Assembly (NCBI GenBank): GCA_041645555.1
Contig: JBAZPX010000001.1
Location: 127,479 to 191,478, forward strand
DNA length: 64,000 nt
DNA from: Patescibacteria group bacterium
GTDB lineage: Bacteria > Patescibacteriota > Patescibacteriia > Patescibacteriales > JAQTRU01
Direction of reading: 5' to 3'
The notes under the pieces are model-generated. The model worked only from the letters and a program-made list of their open reading frames with translations, made no database searches and was not told where the DNA came from. Made by a program: the position numbers and the translations under genes. Positions 13,822 to 57,420 of the stretch are shown here, one piece after another; the first letter of the stretch is position 1, and each line of letters starts with the position of its first letter.

Positions 13822-16629
13822 ATGGGTATTTTAGGAAAAATCTTCGGGGATCCGAATGAAAAAATAGTAAAAAAACTGGAGCCGATTATTAAAGAAATAA
13901 ATGCTTTAGAGCCAAGGTTTGAAAAGATGAGCGATGAGGAGTTGAAGGGAATGACTGCCGAATTTAGGAAAAGACTGGGAGTGAAAATGGACGTTGCTGA
14001 AAAAATAGGATCTCTCCAGGATGACATAAAAAAGAAACTGGATGAAATATTGCCGGAAGCTTTTGCCGTGGTAAGAGAAGCAGGAAAAAGGGTTTTAGGG
14101 CAGAGGCATTATGATGTCCAGCTGGTAGGCGGCATAGTTCTTCATCGCGGCCAGATTGCGGAAATGAGGACCGGAGAAGGCAAAACTTTAGTGGCGACCT
14201 TGCCTCTTTATTTAAACGCTTTAGCCGGCCAGGGCGTGCATCTGGTAACGGTTAATGATTATTTATCCAGAGTGGGCGCGGGCTGGATGGCGCCGGTTTT
14301 CCATCTTTTAGGACTAACGACCGGCGTGATTATCCATGACACTGCGTTCGCTTTCGACCCGGAATTTTCGGATGATTCGCAGTATGATGACCGGTTAAAG
14401 CATTTCCGGAAAATAGCGAGAAAAGAAGCTTACCAATGCGACATAACTTATGGCACGAATAACGAATTTGGCTTTGATTATCTGCGCGATAATATGGTGC
14501 CGTCTTTGGGGCAAATGGTGCAAAGGGGGCTTTATTATACGATTGTTGATGAAATTGATTCTATTTTAATTGATGAGGCGAGAACCCCTTTGATAATTTC
14601 CGCTCCGGCCGAGGAGTCAACCGACAAATATTATAAATTTTCCCAATTGGTGGAGCGCTTAAAAGAAAAAGAAGATTATAACGTGGATGAGAAAATGCGG
14701 GCGGCAACTTTGACCGAAACCGCCATTACCAAAATGGAAAAATGGCTGGGCGTGGAAAATATTTACGTCTCCGGCGGGGTTCGCGATGTCCACCATATTG
14801 AGCAGGCCTTGAAAGCGCGGGTTTTATTTAAAAAGGACCGGGATTACGTCGTGAAGGAAGGCCAGATTATAATCGTTGACGAGTTTACCGGCCGTTTGAT
14901 GTTTGGCCGGCGCTACAGCGAAGGATTGCATCAGGCGATTGAAGCTAAAGAAGGCGTGGAGATCCAGAGGGAATCGCAGACGCTCGCGACCGTCACTTTC
15001 CAGAATTATTTTCGCATGTATAAAAAATTATCCGGTATGACCGGCACAGCCGTCACGGAAGCCGAAGAATTTTCTAAAATCTATAAATTAGAAACCGTGG
15101 TTATTCCCACGAACCAGCCGATGATAAGGAAGGATATGAATGATTTAATTTACCGCACCGAAGAAGGAAAATTCAAAGCTGTGATTGAAGACGTAAAAGA
15201 AAGAAATAAGAAGGGCCAGCCGGTTTTAATCGGGACGATTTCCATTGAGAAAAACGAGCTTTTGGCGGAAATGATGAAAAGGGAAGGGCTTGACCCGCAG
15301 GTTTTAAACGCCAAGAATCATGAAAAAGAAGCGCAATTTATCGCTCAAGCCGGCCGGTTAGGCACGATTACCGTGGCCACTAATATGGCAGGCCGGGGCG
15401 TAGATATAATTTTAGGCGGAAATCCTCCCGATAAGGAAGAACAAAAAAAGGTAATTGAAGCGGGCGGCTTGCACGTGCTTGGCACCGAGCGGCATGAAGC
15501 GAGAAGAATTGACAACCAGCTGCGCGGGCGGTCCGGCCGCCAGGGCGACCCGGGCTCTTCCCAATTTTTTGTTTCGACTGATGATGATTTAATGAGAATT
15601 TTTGGCGGGGACCGGATGAAGGGCTTAATGAAGACTTTGCGCGTGCCGGAAGACATGCCGATTGAAAACCGGATAGTTTCCAAGTCAATTGAATCCGCCC
15701 AGATGAAAGTTGAAGGCAATAACTTTGATATCCGCAAACACCTAGTTGAATATGATGACGTGATAAATAAGCACCGGGAGTCAATTTATCGTAAGAGGAG
15801 AGAAATACTGGAATTAGCGGGAGAGAAGGTGGTGGAAGATAAAGAAGGAGAAAAGGAGGAAAACAGCAGGACTTTGTCTGGCATAATATTTGATATGGTG
15901 GAAAATGAGATTGAGCAGGTAGTAAGTTTTCATACGGCTTCGGAGATTGTCAAAGACTGGAATTTAAACGAAATTTACGAAGTGGCCTCCACTATTTTCC
16001 CGGTAGAAAAAGGATTGAAAAAAGATTTGTCCGCTTTTGCCGAGGATGAGGGCAAATTAAATAAGGCCCGGGCCCGGACAGTGATTATTGAGCATTTAGT
16101 GAAACTGGCAGGAGAGAATTACGAAAAGATGAAAGAGCAGTTCAAGGCCATTGGCGCCGGTTTTAATTTTTCCGAAATTGAAAAAGCGATTTTAATCCGT
16201 TCGATTGATATGTTGTGGATAGAGCACTTGGATGCCATGGATTACATGCGCCGGGGCATAGGACTCCGCGGCTACGGCCAGCACGACCCCTTGGTTGAAT
16301 ATAAAAAAGAAGCTTATCATCTTTTTAACGAACTCAATAGCTTAATCCAGAAAGAAGTGGTTTATTCCGTTTTTAAAGTCGGGGACATGAACCAACTTAA
16401 AGCTCCGAGCCTGGTAGATAGGGCGAAACAGTTCAGCGCCCCGGCTAAAACAATGGACGAGAAAACTTCTTCTTTTTCCGGCTTTAAGCAGGCGGATAAA
16501 GGCAGTAATTCCGGCACCATTGATATGGTTAAGCCAAAACAAAAAAATGCCCAAGGGGAGAAAATCGGCCGCAATGACCCTTGCCCGTGTGGTTCAGGCA
16601 AGAAATACAAGAAGTGTTGCGGAAAGTAA
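13822..16629 (+). CDS. secA: preprotein translocase ATPase SecA
   Basis: Full-length SecA: DEAD motor domains, GRSGRQGDPG, C-terminal zinc tail CPCGSGKKYKKCCGK. Confidence 0.95.
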   Translation: MGILGKIFGDPNEKIVKKLEPIIKEINALEPRFEKMSDEELKGMTAEFRKRLGVKMDVAEKIGSLQDDIKKKLDEILPEAFAVVREAGKRVLGQRHYDVQLVGGIVLHRGQIAEMRTGEGKTLVATLPLYLNALAGQGVHLVTVNDYLSRVGAGWMAPVFHLLGLTTGVIIHDTAFAFDPEFSDDSQYDDRLKHFRKIARKEAYQCDITYGTNNEFGFDYLRDNMVPSLGQMVQRGLYYTIVDEIDSILIDEARTPLIISAPAEESTDKYYKFSQLVERLKEKEDYNVDEKMRAATLTETAITKMEKWLGVENIYVSGGVRDVHHIEQALKARVLFKKDRDYVVKEGQIIIVDEFTGRLMFGRRYSEGLHQAIEAKEGVEIQRESQTLATVTFQNYFRMYKKLSGMTGTAVTEAEEFSKIYKLETVVIPTNQPMIRKDMNDLIYRTEEGKFKAVIEDVKERNKKGQPVLIGTISIEKNELLAEMMKREGLDPQVLNAKNHEKEAQFIAQAGRLGTITVATNMAGRGVDIILGGNPPDKEEQKKVIEAGGLHVLGTERHEARRIDNQLRGRSGRQGDPGSSQFFVSTDDDLMRIFGGDRMKGLMKTLRVPEDMPIENRIVSKSIESAQMKVEGNNFDIRKHLVEYDDVINKHRESIYRKRREILELAGEKVVEDKEGEKEENSRTLSGIIFDMVENEIEQVVSFHTASEIVKDWNLNEIYEVASTIFPVEKGLKKDLSAFAEDEGKLNKARARTVIIEHLVKLAGENYEKMKEQFKAIGAGFNFSEIEKAILIRSIDMLWIEHLDAMDYMRRGIGLRGYGQHDPLVEYKKEAYHLFNELNSLIQKEVVYSVFKVGDMNQLKAPSLVDRAKQFSAPAKTMDEKTSSFSGFKQADKGSNSGTIDMVKPKQKNAQGEKIGRNDPCPCGSGKKYKKCCGK

Positions 16630-16740
16630 TGCGTAGCGCTAAACAAGAAAATTCCGAGTCTCGCCCCGCCGAAGTCCCACGCTCGGGACGAAGGAGGGTG
16701 CGGGAGTGGGAAGAAATATAAGAAATGCTGTGGGAAATAA
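16630..16740 (+). repeat. GC-rich hairpin element (72 nt) followed by a 39-nt in-frame duplicate of the secA C-terminal zinc-tail coding sequence
   Basis: 16702-16740 re-encodes GSGKKYKKCCGK* in the secA frame, with 9 synonymous differences from the authentic copy. 16630-16701 contains CCGAAGTCCC-acgctc-GGGACGAAGG. Confidence 0.7.
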
Positions 16741-16741
16741 T

Positions 16742-17014
16742 ATGGAAAAGACAACCTCAAATTTCGATAAAGAAATATTGAAAGCAAGCGACGAAGAGCT
16801 CAATAAAATTTTGAGCGAGGCATGGAATAAAAAAGATAGCTATGGATATCAAATGGAGTATCAACTTAAAACCTTGATTGTCAGCATGATTAAAAATCAG
16901 CGGCATATAGATAGGATTGAAGGTCGGAATCAAACCTTTACTAAAATAATTATTTGGCTGACCGTTGTAAATGTTATTGCTACTATCGTCAACATATTAA
17001 TTTCCCTGCGGTAG
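16742..17014 (+). CDS. hypothetical small protein with a C-terminal TM helix
   Basis: ORF with a hydrophobic C-terminus (IIIWLTVVNVIATIVNILISL). The start at MEKTT (16742) is chosen because the upstream part overlaps the duplicated secA tail. Confidence 0.35.
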   Translation: MEKTTSNFDKEILKASDEELNKILSEAWNKKDSYGYQMEYQLKTLIVSMIKNQRHIDRIEGRNQTFTKIIIWLTVVNVIATIVNILISLR

Positions 17015-17186
17015 GTTATTGAAAAGCGAAAAATGCCATGTGATTAGTTCTTTGTTGTTATACCGCGTTTGATGTGGCATCCAGGATTCATGCGGTATAA
17101 CCCTGGATTCCCGCTTTCGCGGGAATGACAGAATGGGGGAACATAAGAAGCGCCACGGGAAGTAGGAACTGAGCAAAATAATTATT

Positions 17187-26645: not shown

Positions 26646-27596
26646 ATGAATGTACAACAAATCTACGACTTAGCGGTGAAGATGGGCATTAAGGCTGACC
26701 TTCGCGGCGAAAAAGATGTCAGAAAAAATTTGGAAAGGATAAAGGCCAAGTATGAGAAAATGGATAAGGAAGCAAAGGCTGAATTTGATAAGGAGAAGTT
26801 AACCAATCCTTACAGTGATTCCCGGATTTTATTTTCGGGCGGCGAAAAAGAGATAAAGAAAGTTTTAATCGGAGTTGATATGGAGGGGGCAGAATTGCTG
26901 TTAGCCGATAAATTAGGCGATATTGATTTGGTAATTGCCCATCATCCGGAAGGGCCGGCCTTGGCTGATTTGCACGGCGTAATGGATTTGCAATCAGAAG
27001 TTTTGGCCAAGTACGGTGTGCCAATTAATATTGCCGAATCAGTCATCAGACCGAGAATTTCCGAAGTTGGCCGCGGTATTTCTTCGGCTAACCATAACCG
27101 TTCGGTTGATATAGCAAAAATTTTAGGTCTTAATTTTATGTGTATTCATACTCCTTGCGATAATTTGGGAGCGAATCATTTGGTAAAATTAATAAACAAG
27201 AAGAAGCCCGAGTTTGTGGAAGATGTTTTAAAAATGTTAAAAGAAATTCCGGAATTTAAAGAAGCAGTTAACCGCAAAGCCGGGCCGAAGTTATTTGTCG
27301 GCAATCCGGACGATAGATGCGGCAAAGTCGTGGTAACGGAATTTACCGGCGGCACGTCAGGGTCAAAAGATATTTACGAAAAGATGGCGCAAGCCGGCAT
27401 TGGCACGGTTATAGGCATGCATATGAGTGAAGAGCACAGGAAAGAAGCGGAGAAAGCTCATATCAATGTCGTGATTGCCGGACACATGGCTTCTGATTCT
27501 TTAGGCTTGAATTTATTTTTAGACGAGTTAGAGAAAAAAGGCATTAAAGTAGTGCCGGTTTCCGGGCTGATTAGGGTGAAGAGATCGGGACGTTAA
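26646..27596 (+). CDS. Nif3-like dinuclear metal centre protein (NIF3/YqfO family)
   Basis: DLVIAHHP and C-terminal VVIAGHMASD motifs at spacing typical of NIF3 proteins. Confidence 0.5.
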   Translation: MNVQQIYDLAVKMGIKADLRGEKDVRKNLERIKAKYEKMDKEAKAEFDKEKLTNPYSDSRILFSGGEKEIKKVLIGVDMEGAELLLADKLGDIDLVIAHHPEGPALADLHGVMDLQSEVLAKYGVPINIAESVIRPRISEVGRGISSANHNRSVDIAKILGLNFMCIHTPCDNLGANHLVKLINKKKPEFVEDVLKMLKEIPEFKEAVNRKAGPKLFVGNPDDRCGKVVVTEFTGGTSGSKDIYEKMAQAGIGTVIGMHMSEEHRKEAEKAHINVVIAGHMASDSLGLNLFLDELEKKGIKVVPVSGLIRVKRSGR

Positions 27597-27684
27597 GATT
27601 CTTGAGATTCTTAAGATTTTTAGGATTTTTAAGATAAAGTTATCAGGCAGCTCGTTTCGGCGGGCTGTTTTGGTAAAAATCAAG

Positions 27685-27960
27685 ATGAAAATTATAAAAT
27701 CAAAAAAGCCGGAATTGATTGCGCCGGCCCTCCTTCGTCCCAAGTACTCGGGACTTCGGAAGGGCTACTACTGTGCGACTTAATAATAAATATAAAATGG
27801 CAAATAATATTAAAACAAAACTGGAGCTAATTGCGCCGGCCCGCCTTCTCCGCCAGCGGGCGGATTCGGCGAGGCACTTGCTATGCAAATTAATAGTAAA
27901 TACAAAATGAGAAATAATACTAAAATAAAACCCGAGCTAATTGCGCCGGCCGGGAATTTG
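27685..27960 (+). repeat. about 111-nt tandem repeat (2.4 units). Each unit is a 45-nt copy of the U32 peptidase 5' coding end plus a 65-67-nt GC-rich hairpin element.
   Basis: Three copies of ATG-...-gagctaattgcgccggcc (M-x4-K-x-K-x-ELIAPA) at 27685, 27797 and 27907. The spacers 27730-27796 and 27842-27906 are reverse-orientation relatives of the secA-tail element. Confidence 0.8.
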
Positions 27961-29160
27961 GAAAAAATGAAAACCGCTTTTGCTTTCGGAGCGGACGCGG
28001 TTTATTTAGGCATACCGGATTTTTCTTTACGCGTCCGGGTTAATGATTTTACTTTAGCCGGAATCGCTAAGGCCGTAGAATATGCCCACGGGGTTAGAAA
28101 AAAAGTTTACGCGACAGTTAATATCTTTGCCCATAACAAGCATTTGAAAAAATTGCCTGGCCACATAAGAGAATTAAGAAAAATAGGGGTTGACGGTTTG
28201 TTTATTTCCGACCCGGCAGTTTTATTTGAGGTAAAAAGAATCTGGCCTAAAGCAAAAATTATTTTAAGTACGCAAGCTAATTGCACGAACTGGCAAGCGG
28301 CTAAATTTTGGCTTAAAGAGGGAGTAAAAAGAATAATCTTAAGCAGAGAGTTAAGTCTAGAGGAAATAAAAGAAATAAAAAAACGAGTGCCGAAACTGGA
28401 ATTAGAGTGTTTTATCCACGGGGCCTTGTGTACGGCTTATTCCGGCCGGTGCTTTCTTTCAAAATATTTTAATGACCGGAATGCCAACTTAGGCGACTGT
28501 TCCCAGCCCTGCCGCTGGAATTATTTTATATCCGCAGAAAATCACGAAACTTTAGAACTGGTGGAAGAAAAGCACGGCAGTTATCTTTTGAATTCTAAAG
28601 ATTTGTGTTTAGTTAAAAAGGTTCCGGAATTGATTAAGGCAGGCATAAGCGCTTTCAAAATTGAAGGCCGGGCTAAGAGCGTTTATTATTTAGCCAATGT
28701 CGTCGGGGCTTATAGAAAAGCGATAGATTTGACTTCGGGAAAAATTAAAGGCGGAATATTAAAAAAGGAACTGAATTTTTTATATAAAGAACTGGAAGAA
28801 AAATTATATCACCGGGGTTATACTAAAGGCTTTATGTTCGGGGAAGGCGAGACCGCCCAGAATTTAGATAATTCGCATAAGATTCCGGAGTGGGAATTCT
28901 GCGGCCAAGTCGTTAGTCAATTTTCAAATGTCAAAGGTCAATTGTCAATCAAAGTACATAATACGATGAGGGTTGGAGACGAGATAGAGATTATCCGACC
29001 GAGTTATGATATAATAAGATTAAAGCTGAAAAAGATGATAAATGCAGAAAATGGCAAGGAAATAGCCGAAGCGCATGGGGGAGGAAGCGAGGATGTGGTG
29101 TTTTTGGAAATAAAACAAGATGTGCCGGAGTATAGCGTGGCGCGAAGACGCATGACTTAA
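27907..29160 (+). CDS. peptidase U32 family protein
   Basis: ELIAPAGNLEKMKTAFAFGADAVYLG and the E..GRAKSVYYLANVVGAYRKAID U32 signature. Start placed at the third tandem copy (27907); the ORF track starts at 27883. Confidence 0.8.
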   Translation: MRNNTKIKPELIAPAGNLEKMKTAFAFGADAVYLGIPDFSLRVRVNDFTLAGIAKAVEYAHGVRKKVYATVNIFAHNKHLKKLPGHIRELRKIGVDGLFISDPAVLFEVKRIWPKAKIILSTQANCTNWQAAKFWLKEGVKRIILSRELSLEEIKEIKKRVPKLELECFIHGALCTAYSGRCFLSKYFNDRNANLGDCSQPCRWNYFISAENHETLELVEEKHGSYLLNSKDLCLVKKVPELIKAGISAFKIEGRAKSVYYLANVVGAYRKAIDLTSGKIKGGILKKELNFLYKELEEKLYHRGYTKGFMFGEGETAQNLDNSHKIPEWEFCGQVVSQFSNVKGQLSIKVHNTMRVGDEIEIIRPSYDIIRLKLKKMINAENGKEIAEAHGGGSEDVVFLEIKQDVPEYSVARRRMT

Positions 29161-30142: not shown

Positions 30143-31393
30143 ATGCTTCAATCCAAACTTTTTACTAAAACCATAAAAGAGTTGCCTAAGGACGAAACCA
30201 GTTTTAATGCCAAAGAATTAATTAGGGCCGGCTTTATTGATAAGGTGGCGGCCGGAGTTTATTCGTTTCTGCCTTTGGGCTTACGCGTCCACAATAAAAT
30301 CTGCCGGATCATCAGGCAGGAAATGGACGCTATCGGCGGGCAGGAAATTTTAATGCCGGCTTTAATCCCGAAAGAAGCCTGGGCGACAACTAACCGCTGG
30401 GAAAATTTTGACGCCTTATTCAGGTTAATCGGGGGAGATAAAAAGGAATACGGACTGGGAGCGACGCACGAGGAAGTCGTAACGCCCTTGGTAAAAAAAT
30501 TTGTTTTTTCCTATAAAGACCTGCCGACCGCCGTTTACCAGATTCAGACTAAATTCAGGAATGAGCTTCGCGCTAAAGCCGGTTTAATAAGGGGCCGGGA
30601 GTTTTCTATGAAAGATTTATATTCTTTTCATACAGACGAGAAAGATCTGGAGAAATTTTACGAAATAGTGACAGAGGCTTATTTCAAGATATTCGCTCGC
30701 TGCGGTTTGGGCAACCTTACCTATTTAACTTATGCTTTGGGCGGGACGTTCTCTAAATATTCCCACGAATTCCAAAGTTTAGCCAAAACCGGAGAAGATA
30801 CTATCCATATTTGCCAGAAATGTAAAATTGCCATAAATAAAGAGATTATCGAGGAGCAAAAAGTCTGCCCAAAATGCGGAAAAAAAGATTTTACCGAAGA
30901 GAAAGCGGTTGAAGTGGGAAATATTTTTAAACTAGGCACCCGTTTTTCTAAGCCCTTTGGTTTGCAATACATGGATGAAAAAGGCGGAAAGCAGGATGTG
31001 ATTATGGGCTGCTACGGTCTTGGCCCCAGCCGGGTGATGGGAACGGTTGTGGAGGTTTGCCACGATGAGCAAGGCATAATCTGGCCAGAAGAAATCGCGC
31101 CGTTTAAAGTCCACCTAATTGAAGTAAGAAGCAAGGAATCAAAAGTTAGAAAAGAAGCGGAAAAATTATATAATGATTTAAGAAAAAATGGAGTTGAAGT
31201 TTTGTATGATGATCGGGAAGGGGTGAGCGCAGGAGCAAAATTCGCGGAAGCGGATTTAATCGGCTGCCCGTATCGGCTGGTAGTGAGCGAGAAGACTTTG
31301 GCGAAAGATAGCGTGGAAGTGAAGAAACGGAATGAAAAAGAAGTGGAGATGGTGAAAATTAGCGAATTAGTTAATTGGTTAATTAAGGGTTAG
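30143..31393 (+). CDS. proS: proline--tRNA ligase (short form lacking the bacterial INS editing domain)
   Basis: Class II motifs: GVYSFLPLGLRVHNKICRIIRQEMDAIGGQEILMP, motif 2 FRNELRAKAGLIRGREFSMKDLYSFH. Zn ribbon CQKC...CPKCG. C-terminal anticodon-binding domain. Confidence 0.8.
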   Translation: MLQSKLFTKTIKELPKDETSFNAKELIRAGFIDKVAAGVYSFLPLGLRVHNKICRIIRQEMDAIGGQEILMPALIPKEAWATTNRWENFDALFRLIGGDKKEYGLGATHEEVVTPLVKKFVFSYKDLPTAVYQIQTKFRNELRAKAGLIRGREFSMKDLYSFHTDEKDLEKFYEIVTEAYFKIFARCGLGNLTYLTYALGGTFSKYSHEFQSLAKTGEDTIHICQKCKIAINKEIIEEQKVCPKCGKKDFTEEKAVEVGNIFKLGTRFSKPFGLQYMDEKGGKQDVIMGCYGLGPSRVMGTVVEVCHDEQGIIWPEEIAPFKVHLIEVRSKESKVRKEAEKLYNDLRKNGVEVLYDDREGVSAGAKFAEADLIGCPYRLVVSEKTLAKDSVEVKKRNEKEVEMVKISELVNWLIKG

Positions 31394-31496
31394 GATTCTT
31401 AGGACTTTTAGGATTTTTGAGATTCTTGGGAATCTCAAAAGAATTTCATAAGAATCCTAAGGATCGCAAAAATCGTAATAATCCCATAAGGAAATC

Positions 31497-55036: not shown

Positions 55037-55155
55037 TTTAATTTTACTCCAATACCGCCTTTGTGCTATAATAAAGATGTTATTTACCCCGTTAGATATC
55101 ATCTTTTTATTTATATTGGGTAAATTTTACATTGGTGTTTTTTTATCTTATTTTT

Positions 55156-57420
55156 ATGCGAAAATTACCGGTAATATCTAATGGGGTTGTATGTTTTTTG
55201 TTTTTTCCGATTTTGCTTTGGTTTTTGTATTTTTGTCCTGTTTTAGCGGAAAAAGAAGGTGCTCAGGGTTTATCCGTGAAGAAGGAGGAAGGCAATAAAA
55301 CAGAGGATATATTGGTTAAATTTAAGGGAAAAGACGAAATTAAAATAATAAAGATAATTGGCGGGGACAATTTTTATAAAACTTTAGATGAGTATAATAG
55401 CAATCCGGAAGTCCTATACGCTGAGCCCAATTATCTTTATCATCAGGTTTCCCTTATCCCAAACGATCCTTATTATGATAACCAGTGGTATTTGCAGAAA
55501 ATAAAAGCCCCGGTTGCCTGGGAAAATATAAACCAAAGTCCGAAGGTGATTATTGCTATTATAGATTCCGGGATCAAGATAGACCACCCTGATTTAGCCG
55601 CCAATATCTGGAGAAATATTGATGAGGTTCCGGGCAACGGGATTGATGATGATAAAAATGGCTTTATTGATGACGCTAATGGCTGGGATTTTATAAACAA
55701 TATGCCCGACCCCTCGCCTAAGTTTGAAGCGGGGTTTACTGAGTCGGGAATTTTGCACGGCACGATTGTGGCGGGCATAGCTGCGGCCGTTGGAAACAAC
55801 GGGGCGGGGATAACGGGGGTAGCCTGGAAAACTTCAATTATGCCGCTGCGGGTTTTAAATGATAATGGCGAAGGCAGAACCAGCGAAGTCATCAGAGCGG
55901 TTGACTACGCCATTGCCAATGGCGCTGATATTATAAATTTCAGTTTTGTCGGTTTCGGCTACAGTAAAGCTTTGCACGAAGCCATAAAGAGAGCTTATGA
56001 TGCCGGCATAATTATTGTGGCCGCGGCTGGCAATGAGCAAGAAGGGGGAGAGGGGTATAATTTAAGCAGTACGCCGATGTACCCGGTTTGCCATGACGGG
56101 AGTAACGGGGAAAATATGATTATTGGCGTGGCCGCCACTGATACCCTTGACCAAAAGGCCAGTTTCTCCAGTTATGGTTTTAACTGTGTCGACATCGCCG
56201 CTCCGGGCGTAAGTATTTTTGGCACGGCCGTTTATGAGCCGACCAAGGGCCCGTTTGATAAATATTATAATGGCTATTGGTCAGGAACCTCAATGGCTAC
56301 GCCGATGGTTTCGGCCGCCGCGGCTTTAATAGAAGAAGCTAATCCAAAAATCAGCCGAGATGGAGTTATAAATATTTTGTTGGATAATTCTGACAATATT
56401 AGCCGGCTTAATCCTGGTTTTTTAGGCCAGTTGGGAAAAGGCAGATTAAATATCGCTTTAGCCGTTGCCAAGACCATTGAGGAGCTAAAAAAAGAAAAAA
56501 TGAAAATATTGACAGCTCCTTTTTCTAATTATTCCAGCCAGGTGAAAATTGCCGGTTATAATGGTGAAATTGAGAAAGAATTTTTGTCATATGGGGAAAA
56601 TTTTCGTGGCGGAGTTAATATTGCGGCCGGAGACGTCAACGGCGACGGCCAGGATGAAATAATCGTCGGAGCCGGAGTTGGCGGTGGCCCGCATGTCCGC
56701 ATATTTGATTATTCGGGCAAGGTTTTAGGCCAGTTTTTCGCCTATGACAAAAATTTTCGCGGCGGAGTTAATGTTTCCTCCGGGGATATAAACGGAGACG
56801 GAATTGATGAAATTATTACTGGTAGCGGTCTTGGCGGCGGCCCGCAAGTCCGGATTTTTGACGGCAAAGGCAAGGTTTTAGGCCAGTTTTTCGCCTATGA
56901 CAAAAATTTTCGCGGCGGAGTTAATGTCGCGTCCGGAGACGTCAACGGCGATGGCAAAGACGAAATTATTGCCGGCGCTGGAGCCGGCGGCGGCCCGCAA
57001 GTACGCATTTTTAATTCAGCCGGTGTTATAGAGGGACAATTTTTCGCCTATGCCCAGAATTTCAGGGGAGGGGTGAGAGTAGCGGTAGCTGATATTGACG
57101 GCGGAGTAGCACAGAAAAAAGACGAAATTATAACGGCTCCCGGCCTTGGCGGCGGTCCTCACATCAGAATTTTTGATAACCATGCCAATTTAGCCGGTCA
57201 GTTTTTCGCCTATGATAAAAGTTTTCGCGGCGGAGTCAATATTGCGGCCGGGGACATTGATAATGACGGGCTGGCGGAAGTTATTACCGGCGCCGGACCG
57301 GGCGGAACCCCGCATGTCAGAATTTTTGAAACTGATGGCGAGTTAATCGGATCTTTTTATGCTTATGAAGATAAATTTAGCGGCGGGGTTAACGTGGGAG
57401 CGGTGGCGGTTAAGAATTAG
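55156..57420 (+). CDS. S8 subtilisin-like serine protease with C-terminal FG-GAP repeat beta-propeller
   Basis: Signal/TM, then catalytic D (AIIDSGIKIDHPDL), H (HGTIVAGIAAA), S (GTSMATPMVSAAAAL). Then 5.5 tandem ~51-aa repeats FRGGVNxxxGDxNGDGxDEIIxGxGxGGGPxVRIF...QFFAY. Confidence 0.85.
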   Translation: MRKLPVISNGVVCFLFFPILLWFLYFCPVLAEKEGAQGLSVKKEEGNKTEDILVKFKGKDEIKIIKIIGGDNFYKTLDEYNSNPEVLYAEPNYLYHQVSLIPNDPYYDNQWYLQKIKAPVAWENINQSPKVIIAIIDSGIKIDHPDLAANIWRNIDEVPGNGIDDDKNGFIDDANGWDFINNMPDPSPKFEAGFTESGILHGTIVAGIAAAVGNNGAGITGVAWKTSIMPLRVLNDNGEGRTSEVIRAVDYAIANGADIINFSFVGFGYSKALHEAIKRAYDAGIIIVAAAGNEQEGGEGYNLSSTPMYPVCHDGSNGENMIIGVAATDTLDQKASFSSYGFNCVDIAAPGVSIFGTAVYEPTKGPFDKYYNGYWSGTSMATPMVSAAAALIEEANPKISRDGVINILLDNSDNISRLNPGFLGQLGKGRLNIALAVAKTIEELKKEKMKILTAPFSNYSSQVKIAGYNGEIEKEFLSYGENFRGGVNIAAGDVNGDGQDEIIVGAGVGGGPHVRIFDYSGKVLGQFFAYDKNFRGGVNVSSGDINGDGIDEIITGSGLGGGPQVRIFDGKGKVLGQFFAYDKNFRGGVNVASGDVNGDGKDEIIAGAGAGGGPQVRIFNSAGVIEGQFFAYAQNFRGGVRVAVADIDGGVAQKKDEIITAPGLGGGPHIRIFDNHANLAGQFFAYDKSFRGGVNIAAGDIDNDGLAEVITGAGPGGTPHVRIFETDGELIGSFYAYEDKFSGGVNVGAVAVKN
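56593..57420 (+). repeat. about 153-nt in-frame tandem repeats encoding FG-GAP units (x5.5)
   Basis: Repeated aattttcgcggcggagttaat...ggcggcggcccgca...ttttcgcctatga blocks. Confidence 0.8.

Follow-up and report, generated by a model that had tools for sequence, protein, structure and literature searches.

Duplicated gene ends beside a REP-like hairpin at the U32 peptidase and secA genes of a patescibacterial genome: possible gene-end replacement cassettes

Introduction

Genomic islands and prophages that target tRNA genes, tmRNA genes or the 5' end of dusA restore the gene end into which they integrate; they are kilobases long and encode an integrase, and their repeats are the att core. The minimal mobile elements and the NIME (Neisseria intergenic mosaic element)/dRS3 sequences of Neisseria are small cassettes between conserved flanks that are exchanged by transformation and homologous recombination. 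NIME/dRS3 sequences form arrays of short hairpin repeats with units of 50–150 bp between them and are lineage-specific, and we know of no replacement of coding termini described for these Neisseria elements. Hairpins also mark both ends of the IS200/IS605 "peel and paste" elements and of palindrome-associated transposable elements (PATEs), which insert 3' of a fixed tetranucleotide. Here we analyze a 64-kb stretch of DNA (64,000 nt of contig JBAZPX010000001.1, hereafter the window) from a Patescibacteria group bacterium, in which the start of a gene for a U32 family peptidase occurs three times in tandem and the end of secA occurs twice, with GC-rich hairpins of one type between the copies. 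We read the U32 array tentatively, with a confidence that stops just short of an even call, as a stack of two gene-end replacement cassettes of about 111 nt each.

The repetitive extragenic palindromes (REPs), REPINs and the other palindromic repeat superfamilies tagged by GTAG or CGTC, including intragenic copies and the Rickettsia palindromic elements (RPEs), have been described (PMC3733652). For REPs, mobilisation in trans is attributed to tyrosine (HUH) transposases of the IS200-like kind that act on single-stranded hairpins, and dRS3 has been equated with the CGTC-1 repeats (PMC3733652). RPEs measure 100–150 bp and are confined to Rickettsia (PMC3733652 and general knowledge). A link between REPs and duplicated, replaced gene ends was not found in our searches of the literature. 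Searches of the literature for the hairpin sequence, for the peptides that it encodes and for the concept put forward here also returned no description, the nearest work being the REP-superfamily paper (PMC3733652).

Results

Three tandem starts of the U32 peptidase gene

Direct reading places an ATG followed by 14 codons ending in ELIAPA (GAR-YTN-ATT-GCG-CCG-GCC) at positions 27685, 27797 and 27907 of the window, with start-to-start distances of 112 and 110 nt. These three copies had been noted in a preliminary description made from the sequence alone, and they also stand up to a shuffle test, in which the ELIAPA-coding 18-mer GAGCTAATTGCGCCGGCC was found three times with at most 3 mismatches against 0.03 occurrences expected from shuffles. 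The array is laid out as follows; numbers preceded by L and P are our own labels for contigs and protein homologues.

27648–27667, plus strand: leader hairpin U0, cagctcgtttcggcgggctg, behind which a short, AT-rich ancestral leader runs to the first ATG; read directly, and the same in relatives.
27685–27729, plus strand: U32 N-terminus copy 1, MKIIKSKKPELIAPA; displaced and read as the oldest, its translation stopping at 27783.
27730–27764, minus strand: hairpin of spacer 1 (S1), CCCTT-CCGAAG-TCCC-gagtactt-GGGA-CGAAGG-AG; its 3' foot abuts copy 1, and its core is that of the secA hairpin and of 116 metagenome copies.
27765–27796, plus strand: linker 1, the leader before the copy-2 ATG; homologous to linker 2 and to the spacer of the related contig L001.
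27797–27841, plus strand: U32 N-terminus copy 2, MANNIKTKLELIAPA; displaced, its frame ending in a TGA that overlaps the copy-3 ATG.
27842–27874, minus strand: hairpin of spacer 2 (S2), CCTCG-CCGAAT-CCGCC-cgct-GGCGG-AGAAGG-CG; a rare compensated inner stem, its 3' foot abutting copy 2.
27875–27906, plus strand: linker 2, ending in the copy-3 leader; 27/31 identical to the L001 linker.
27907–29160, plus strand: functional U32 family peptidase of 417 aa, the first 45 nt of which (27907–27951) are copy 3, MRNNTKIKPELIAPA; homologues carry Pfam PF01136 and PF16325, and the match to P0001 is 100%.

Only the third copy continues into the peptidase, as the preliminary description had stated. The open reading frames (ORFs) of the displaced copies, 27670–27783 and 27719–27910, both end in stops, the second of which overlaps the copy-3 ATG as ATGA. 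In our own ungapped count the copies are 64–87% identical, with 39/45 for copies 2 and 3. Differences between copies in the PELIAPA codons are synonymous only (gaa ttg att vs gag cta att); the remainder of copy 1 differs at about a third of positions, and we estimate the PELIAPA pattern at about 0.003 under neutral decay. The inserts of 110–112 nt contain no ORF. The gene body downstream of codon 15 may be the source of the start of linker 2 (GGcAcTTG..ATGcAAA vs GGgAaTTG..ATGaAAA), judging from a comparison made by eye and without statistical control.

Both spacers fold as the GC-rich hairpins proposed for them earlier, with z of −1.9 to −3.7 vs shuffles. On the minus strand each reads CC-GAA-stem-loop-stem-GAA-GG, the motif that is seen on the plus strand after secA, and the original view of the spacers as reverse-orientation relatives of a secA element is thus upheld. 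The two spacers are homologous to each other, their flanks being 80–87% identical while the inner stems of S1 and S2 are wholly different. A CRISPR-like array was considered and rejected: the repeats are coding gene ends that are 64–87% identical, the spacers are mutually homologous, and an Rfam search around the array with E up to 10 returned nothing relevant and no CRISPR family.

A structural hairpin scan and a scan for duplicated gene ends were both run across the 64-kb window. The first returned three hairpins of this type and no more, the second returned two duplicated ends only (secA and U32), and the two sets coincide.

A displaced and a foreign terminus at secA

The last 13 codons of secA and the stop are repeated 111 nt downstream:

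16588–16629, plus strand: secA terminus A, CGSGKKYKKCCGK and stop; functional now, and the imported copy.
16630–16660, plus strand: secA linker, by direct reading.
16661–16698, plus strand: secA hairpin, TCGCCCCG-CCGAAG-TCCC-acgctc-GGGA-CGAAGG-AGGG; its 3' foot abuts terminus B.
16699–16740, plus strand: secA terminus B, the displaced resident end; the same peptide as A, in frame with the secA stop.

Termini A and B differ at 12 nt without any amino-acid change; 10/13 third-codon positions differ, and a serine codon is TCA in one and AGT in the other. An empty site is present in a relative, L212 (...gacccttgcccg / tgcgggagcgggaag...gggaaataa / tATG), which comes from the same genome as L206 and whose secA is roughly 88% identical to that of the window at the nucleotide level. 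Terminus B agrees with L212 in 35/42 positions, or 38/39 when one Cys/His codon is set aside, has 5/13 third-codon differences from it (P=0.21 at the gene-wide rate of 0.25) and shares with it the taaTATG junction to the next ORF. Terminus A matches L212 at 30/42 positions with 8/13 third-codon differences (P=0.006 at the gene-wide rate of 0.25). The 150 nt before terminus A are about 92% identical to L212 by eye, and computed 120-nt windows give 0.85–0.86. Because terminus B is the L212 orthologue and terminus A is more diverged than the gene, 16588–16698 represents a 111-nt insertion 42 nt before the stop. These comparisons indicate that the secA insert consists of a new terminus with its stop, a linker and a hairpin, that the resident terminus was pushed downstream, and that a functional secA of more distant origin was the source of the new terminus, which is identical in protein sequence but foreign. 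The last part of the linker (aaaattccgagtctcg...) may be a decayed copy of secA from just upstream of the insertion point, judged by eye and without statistical control.

In two further relatives the end was displaced independently at the same codon. L211 carries a new terminus of a different SEC-C type (CPCGAKRPDGTPIKYKHCHGK and stop); behind it come a linker containing 9-mer repeats typical of the lineage, then a GC hairpin, then the old end, GSGKKYKKCCGA and stop. L210 carries an insert of roughly 400 nt with a reverse 94-aa ORF, and then a decayed old terminus. The functional gene end thus lies on the insert and the old end forms a direct repeat at its far side, both at the secA of the window and in L211, which is the arrangement produced by gene-end-restoring islands; repeated integration of such islands likewise yields tandem arrays of old ends. 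The difference is that the whole insert here measures about 111 nt without an ORF or an integrase, and that the common denominator across targets is the hairpin.

The preliminary description had offered three candidate mechanisms, one of which was a small element with a very long target duplication. The secA copies do not behave as young local duplicates (10/13 third positions differ), the copy attached to the gene is foreign and L211 has another SEC-C type; this candidate is not supported. Among the three, a cassette-like exchange of gene ends fits best.

The same data bear on local tandem duplication. On that view an intergenic hairpin was already resident, replication slippage or unequal crossing-over there doubled the stretch that reaches from it to codon 15, and the copies diverged where they lay. 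A tandem duplication whose distal copy holds the hairpin does have this layout. At a 5S rRNA gene (L148, see below) the duplication also takes in part of the trailer and some sequence that lies upstream of the hairpin, and S1 with copy 2 could be an unequal-crossover product of S2 with copy 3, given the 39/45 identity of these copies. REP elements are also known at the join-points of duplications in Salmonella. We nevertheless consider this explanation improbable, since the gene-attached secA copy is more diverged from the relative than the gene is (P=0.006) and the distal copy is the orthologue, the 12 nucleotide changes with no amino-acid change are unlike neutral decay, the new terminus of L211 is of another sequence type, and the inner stems of S1 and S2 are completely different despite flanks that are 80–87% identical.

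Three other readings of secA were tried and rejected. "Patch repair" of a hairpin-damaged resident end by a foreign one was dropped because decay has gone much further in the stretch 5' of the hairpin than in terminus B, and the two cannot have been inactivated together. The template/variable repeat pair of a diversity-generating retroelement does not fit A/B differences that fall at third codon positions, involve all base types and include the TCA/AGT switch. As for an antisense regulator or self-targeting guide RNA, the secA copy is in sense orientation and differs from its would-be target at 12/42 positions.

The alternative SEC-C tail is patchy among close SecA relatives. In P0124, P0127, P0137, P0140, P0159, P0186, P0193 and P0199, from lineages of the candidate phyla radiation (CPR), SecA ends in an alternative zinc-finger tail, CPCGAKKPDGTPKKYKHCCGK, which is not scored by the precomputed Pfam SEC-C model and is scattered among relatives with the standard tail. 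The spacer that separates secA from an AAA-type kinase gene differs between relatives in the small gene that it contains (window 16742–17186; L210 4000–4455; L211 3019–3900; L212 4082–4344): a 90-aa ORF in the window, the reverse 94-aa ORF in L210, in L211 a 52-aa ORF with a PBECR3 nuclease-like protein, and in L212 another ORF. By its gene content, this spacer appears to be an accessory-gene hotspot.

The hairpin belongs to a dispersed REP-like family

Hairpins were collected from metagenomes with the exact pattern CCGAAGTCCC-N4-10-GGGACGAAGG, which is common to S1 and the secA hairpin. A search for copies elsewhere, proposed in the preliminary description, found the pattern in at least 120 metagenome stretches; the figures below refer to the 116 unique copies among the matches listed. 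Their consensus is (G-C-Y-T-G-N)-CCCG-CC-GAA-G-TCCCGC-loop-GCGGGA-C-GAA-GG-CGGG, a short imperfect palindrome of about 45 nt whose structure is conserved as judged by folds, pairing and covariation vs shuffles. The 5' flank G-C-Y-T-G-N is low in information, and nothing is conserved 3' of the stem or further out. The outer 4 bp are paired in 72–82% of copies vs about 30% beyond. Outer pair 1 is G-C in 55 copies and T-A in 23, and is paired in 90/116, where shuffles averaged 57 and reached 71 at most; the inner extension pair next to the loop is C-G in 39 and A-T in 28. The stem covariation first suggested by S1 and S2 is thus upheld vs shuffles at the level of the family, for outer pair 1 and the inner extension pair. 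The two stems compared at that time differ in standing: GTCCC/GGGAC, shared by S1 and the secA hairpin, is the dominant conserved form, and the TCCGCC/GGCGGA of S2 is a rare compensated variant, one of several inner-stem variants that also include CCGAAG-CCTTGG-CGAAGG and similar stems. The GAA/GAA 3x3 internal loop is invariant, which makes the hairpin strand-asymmetric.

Hosts include Patescibacteria and other lineages, and the GC content of flanking DNA ranges from 0.31 to 0.71 among the listed copies. Contigs fetched almost always carry one copy, against three in the 64-kb window. The pattern had 0 matches in viral contigs, and the consensus gave partial chance matches only, none of full length, in PLSDB plasmids and INPHARED phages. 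On low-GC contigs 37/70 copies lie inside ORFs of at least 120 aa (22 sense, 15 antisense), and the strand bias relative to genes that would be expected of an RNA-level element is absent (40 sense, 30 antisense). The hairpin is free of stops in all six frames. A fixed-length target duplication was sought, and no combination of boundary and repeat length rose above the shuffled control, with none found beside hairpins. Rfam returned no family (tRNA, rRNA or other) at gathering score in the whole 64-kb window. Copies that are in frame, strand-neutral and stop-free, together with the lack of an Rfam match, argue for selfish REP- or RPE-like DNA acting at the DNA level and against an RNA gene.

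As far as sequence and predicted structure can tell, the hairpin is a member of a large, widespread and undescribed REP-like family. It resembles REPs, which measure 20–40 nt, as a short, GC-rich, imperfect palindrome that is dispersed, structure-conserved, sometimes translated inside ORFs and free of target duplication. It differs from them in lacking an unpaired GTAG or CGTC tag, its hallmark being the symmetric GAA/GAA loop and a weak 5' CTTG; in being intragenic in about half of the copies rather than mainly extragenic; and in occurring with nearly the same sequence in genomes of very different GC, mostly as single copies, where REPs reach a high copy number per genome and often form inverted pairs. 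With RPEs it shares the character of selfish palindromic DNA that sits in frame in protein genes and is tolerated as an extra peptide, as seen in TatD (below). Unlike RPEs, it is about 45 nt long, has a different sequence and non-Rickettsia hosts, and is accompanied by a replacement terminus at gene ends. [quoted passage not shown] The general plan of two stems around an unpaired spacer is like that of integron attC sites, whose GTTRRRY and RYYYAAC boxes the hairpin lacks. An archaeal-type bulge-helix-bulge intron was rejected because the two 3-nt loops lie opposite each other and are not offset by 4 bp.

Alone inside genes, the hairpin appears as an in-frame, stop-free replacement. The clearest pair of sites is in tatD, where the empty site of L213 reads ...acaccaccc-CAGGCTGGAGTTGAG-cgcaat (TPPQAGVER) and the filled site of L123 and L214 reads ...actccgccc-TTGGCTCGCCGAAGTCCCGCtgaaaaGCGGGACGAAGGCGGG-cgcaac, in frame. 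At the same position a close relative has a short-stem variant, and many CPR TatD proteins have LPAEALAKAG, LARRSPKGEGG and the like. CPR TatD proteins (L123 7816–8604; homologues P0241–P0360) carry hairpin-coded peptides at two or more hotspots. One example is LRSFGEGG behind KYKKLA; another is the site bounded by DCPYL and NEP, which holds LPAEALAKAG or LARRSP..GEGG. Many TatD homologues also have an additional insert of 18 aa (STSGLVKIKTDPEEG..).

The same layout at unrelated genes

The sequence after each hairpin was compared with the 220 nt before it, with shuffled partners as control. The flank-repeat score exceeded the control maximum in about 9/110 hairpin copies; looking for flank duplicates at the protein level brought no gain in sensitivity over DNA. 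Duplicated ends were found at the following genes:

L148: 3' end of the 5S rRNA gene; RNA gene confirmed.
L096 and L146, same locus: C-terminus of an ArsR-like gene, QLKTKLES and stop, against QLKSKLEKD and stop.
L174: MetK C-terminus, EKIDKVSVIRKLAKKR and stop, against EKLDKIKAIRKLASIKRGN and stop.
L110: 5' end of a tRNA-Gly gene; RNA gene confirmed.
L165: 5' end of a tRNA-Arg gene; RNA gene confirmed.
L145: N-terminus of a prepilin.

In the orientation of the hairpin, the layout with a displaced terminus reads gene body, working terminus, linker of 8–66 nt, hairpin, displaced terminus. All eight displaced-terminus cases (secA, U32 twice, MetK, ArsR, 5S and two tRNAs) share this layout and polarity, and in each of the 8/8 the 3' outer stem of the hairpin touches the old copy with zero spacing, the gene body lying on the hairpin 5' side. 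It follows from the constant layout that the hairpin is sense at 3' gene ends and antisense at 5' gene ends. Exceptions are sense hairpins at N-termini, which give in-frame fusions (L145; U32 in L023 and L005). In three contigs the hairpin is fused to the 5' end of tRNA-Gly(UCC). Taken together, the sequences show the same arrangement recurring at seven or eight unrelated genes. Its period varies: the unit of 110–112 nt emphasized in the preliminary description holds for U32 (112 and 110 nt) and secA (111 nt), and periods elsewhere run from 54 to 140 nt, so that 111 nt is not a constant unit length.

At the 5S and tRNA-Arg genes 27 and 16 nt, respectively, of gene sequence from just upstream of the insertion point are repeated 5' of the hairpin. 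Upstream gene sequence in this position makes the inserted block a circular permutation of a hairpin-bearing gene end. A circular single-stranded intermediate of the IS200/IS605 kind, joined at the hairpin foot, would give such a permuted block. Hairpin-defined ends, strand specificity and the absence of a target duplication are further points of likeness to IS200/IS605 elements and PATEs, the polarity being constant here in 8/8 cases. The units seem to differ from IS200/IS605 elements in having one hairpin each, no fixed target motif that we could find and no transposase linked to them so far. The sequences 5' of the insertion points are diverse (TTGCCCG, AATTCCC, GGCCGA, CCTTGG and others).

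These regularities bear on the proposal that homologous recombination did all the work, with a founder arising once per gene and spreading through arms in the gene body and the old terminus, the hairpin being passive and no dedicated enzyme involved. We regard this as unlikely. It accommodates the secA insert, whose two boundaries fall in sequence that hardly varies among relatives and which brings a foreign terminus in front of a resident one. It also accommodates the lack of a target duplication, the absence from the units and their surroundings of a gene for an enzyme (enzymes were not looked for systematically) and the secA-kinase spacer, where a different small gene per relative is what exchange through flanking homology predicts. 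It asks much of a right arm of just 42–45 nt that is 75–85% identical, leaves the constant orientation (8/8) and the zero spacing at the 3' foot unexplained, and cannot account for near-identical hairpins across GC contents of 0.31–0.71 or in unrelated genes.

Larger integrase-type islands that target gene ends could have left these arrangements as scars once their cargo was deleted, the hairpin being part of an island arm. The L210 insert of roughly 400 nt, with its 94-aa ORF between the working and the decayed secA terminus at the same position, speaks for this reading, and the region downstream of secA is a hotspot of small accessory genes. We judge island scars to be very unlikely, as the same hairpin stands beside the displaced ends of at least seven unrelated genes and also alone inside ORFs, the units are small and similar in size (75–140 nt), no integrase remnant is present, and the L210 insert itself has no hairpin.

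The RNA genes also bear on a regulatory device, in which the upstream copies would serve as upstream ORFs or alternative U32 starts and the second secA copy would be reached by stop-codon read-through. Copies 1 and 2 do retain their ATG and PELIAPA codons, the copy-2 stop overlaps the copy-3 ATG, and secA copy B is in frame with the secA stop. The same layout is found at 5S rRNA and tRNA genes, where translation is irrelevant; the peptides after ELIAP vary in sequence and length between the window and L001; close relatives have no array; and the U32 units (112 and 110 nt) are not in a common frame. A role of this kind therefore seems to us highly improbable. Ribosome hopping or stop read-through as such was rejected on the same two grounds, namely U32 units that are out of frame and the recurrence of the layout at RNA genes.

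Contig L203 has, at about 2650–2735, a tRNA-like 3' end (..gaatcccacctcctccgcc) directly before a hairpin, at which ARAGORN calls no tRNA. The hairpin is flanked by two GIY-YIG-like ORF fragments, and the tRNA-like end may be a displaced RNA-gene fragment.

U32 copy number in related genomes

Variation in copy number, for which the preliminary description had proposed to look, was found between related genomes: among syntenic relatives the U32 start is present once in L002, L206 and L207, twice in L001 and three times in the window. The single start of L002, L206 and L207 sits directly behind the same leader hairpin (U0) and leader. L001 has an orthologue of copy 1, MKSLKIKKPELIAPI, and a spacer orthologous to S2 from which the inner stem has been deleted. 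The presence of an orthologous array in L001, an independent assembly, argues against an assembly artefact. The peptides that follow ELIAP differ in sequence and length between the window and L001. Copy 2 resembles the working N-terminus of L002, MKNNIKKKLELIAPA, and copy 1 resembles that of L207; in L206 a copy-3-like N-terminus directly follows the ancestral leader. By analogy with secA, we infer that copy 3 is the newest and functional end and that copy 1 is the original one. The extra unit in the window could have come from unequal crossing-over within a two-unit array, and plain tandem duplication is possible at that step.

Other U32 N-terminal duplicates occur in L005, L007, L023, P0052, P0067 and P0069, some of them fused in frame. 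The U32 homologues P0048, P0049, P0054, P0055, P0060, P0062 and P0085 have N-terminal extensions with PPTPFTKGG, SPLPPLLKG or similar just before PELIAPAG, and these extensions look like translated hairpins of a further GC-rich family, inserted in U32 at this same place.

Discussion

We propose that a cassette lands inside a gene at a GC-rich site, which in the U32 gene follows codon 15 and in secA precedes the stop by 42 nt. The terminus that is cut off would also be supplied by the block, and the gene would stay intact. The previous terminus would be stranded against the 3' foot of the hairpin, and repeated events would stack old termini outwards. Applied to the U32 array, this would make the latest cassette the one composed of copy 3, linker 2 and hairpin 2; the preceding one would comprise copy 2, linker 1 and hairpin 1, and copy 1 would be the original start. 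What the sequences themselves show is the anatomy of the units, the structured hairpin family with copies that also move by themselves, the recurring layout, the insertion, polarity and foreign new terminus at secA, the different terminus type in L211 and the variation in U32 copy number.

The route by which units move is conjectural. In the version that we prefer, the hairpin would be the recognised end of a single-stranded unit and would be handled in trans by a hairpin-specific enzyme of the HUH or IS200-RAYT (REP-associated tyrosine transposase) type. The unit would be cut and joined at the hairpin 3' foot, carrying along DNA from the hairpin 5' side, and only insertions whose passenger restores the gene would survive. 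Units that bear a terminus could then insert without damage at the same conserved GC-rich site of homologous genes, and established cassettes probably also spread by homologous recombination after DNA uptake between related genomes. Hairpin-driven template switching, another mechanism offered in the preliminary description, may have been the founding step.

Several points weigh against this proposal. No enzyme was identified, no systematic search for one having been made, and the proposal does not account for the founding event by which a hairpin first gained a terminus copy on its 5' side. A duplicated terminus accompanies only about 8% of hairpins, and in L210 the secA terminus was displaced without this hairpin. 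Tandem duplication followed by loss or gain of a hairpin would yield the same layout. The hairpin set was gathered with one exact inner-stem pattern, so that conservation of the inner stem is partly by construction. Short sequences underlie the statistics for a foreign origin, with P=0.006 at secA and about 0.003 at U32. At U32 there is no clean empty-site proof of polarity: the L206 start fits loss of a unit in L206 equally with addition of copies 1 and 2 upstream, and because the three genomes compared are about equidistant (83–85% over the gene), parsimony cannot order the events.

The broader claim that follows is possible, though we put it forward with more doubt than confidence: an enzyme-less mobile unit of about 100 nt, made of a strand-asymmetric hairpin and a spare gene terminus, would enter the ends of conserved and essential genes (secA, metK, 5S rRNA, tRNAs, U32) across several bacterial lineages, would be harmless since it replaces what it cuts, and would have gone unrecognised. 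We found no earlier description of units of about 100 nt without an enzyme of their own that combine a REP-like hairpin with restoration of a gene end, and there is a real chance that they form a new class of mobile unit. If so, gene ends are serially swapped between lineages and stacks of displaced ends record that history. In Patescibacteria and other uncultured bacteria a tiny hairpin would move the termini of core genes around as exchangeable modules, and horizontal transfer and mosaicism would extend to a scale of 40–100 nt that gene-level analyses overlook. Odd metagenome annotations would be explained, among them N-terminal extensions, duplicated motifs such as KKSELLAPRQSCPELLAPAG, hairpin-coded peptides (LARRSP..RDEGG, LPAEALAKAG) and the patchy alternative zinc-finger tails of SecA. 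The hairpins would make up a new REP-like family, very widely distributed, whose structure can be tested: two covarying stems and, between them, a GAA/GAA internal loop. They would also offer a handle for finding the enzyme that moves such hairpins, which is of interest as well for CGTC-type REPs and Rickettsia palindromic elements.

Other features of the window

The U32 peptidase and SecA match proteins of Patescibacteria (CPR), close to Falkowbacteria, and the contig that contains the window measures 301 kb. The neighbours of the U32 gene are a NIF3-like gene and RuvA. A promoter and terminator scan gave nothing interpretable. Tandem 9-mers, TTAAGATTC and TTAGGATTC, stand in 4–5 copies directly 3' of stop codons at 27593–27635 and 31390–31435; tandem 9-mers after stops also occur in L206 (1370–1400), L207 (130–170) and L211 (3030–3070), at positions conserved among relatives. 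The NIF3-U32 spacer is 95% identical throughout between the window and L206, and the flanking coding sequence only about 85%.

Another GC-rich palindrome, ggattcccgctttcgcgggaatgac, lies at 17080–17135 and gives the spurious translations VIPAKAGIQ and SFPRKRESR. A near-identical copy is present upstream of the U32 gene in L005 (about 2905–2935), which points to a second dispersed hairpin family. Finally, a 153-nt tandem repeat of 2.8 copies with a 75% match occupies 56597–57019 within the ORF 55132–57420 (762 aa); with a diverged fourth copy at 57184, it presumably represents a repeated protein domain.

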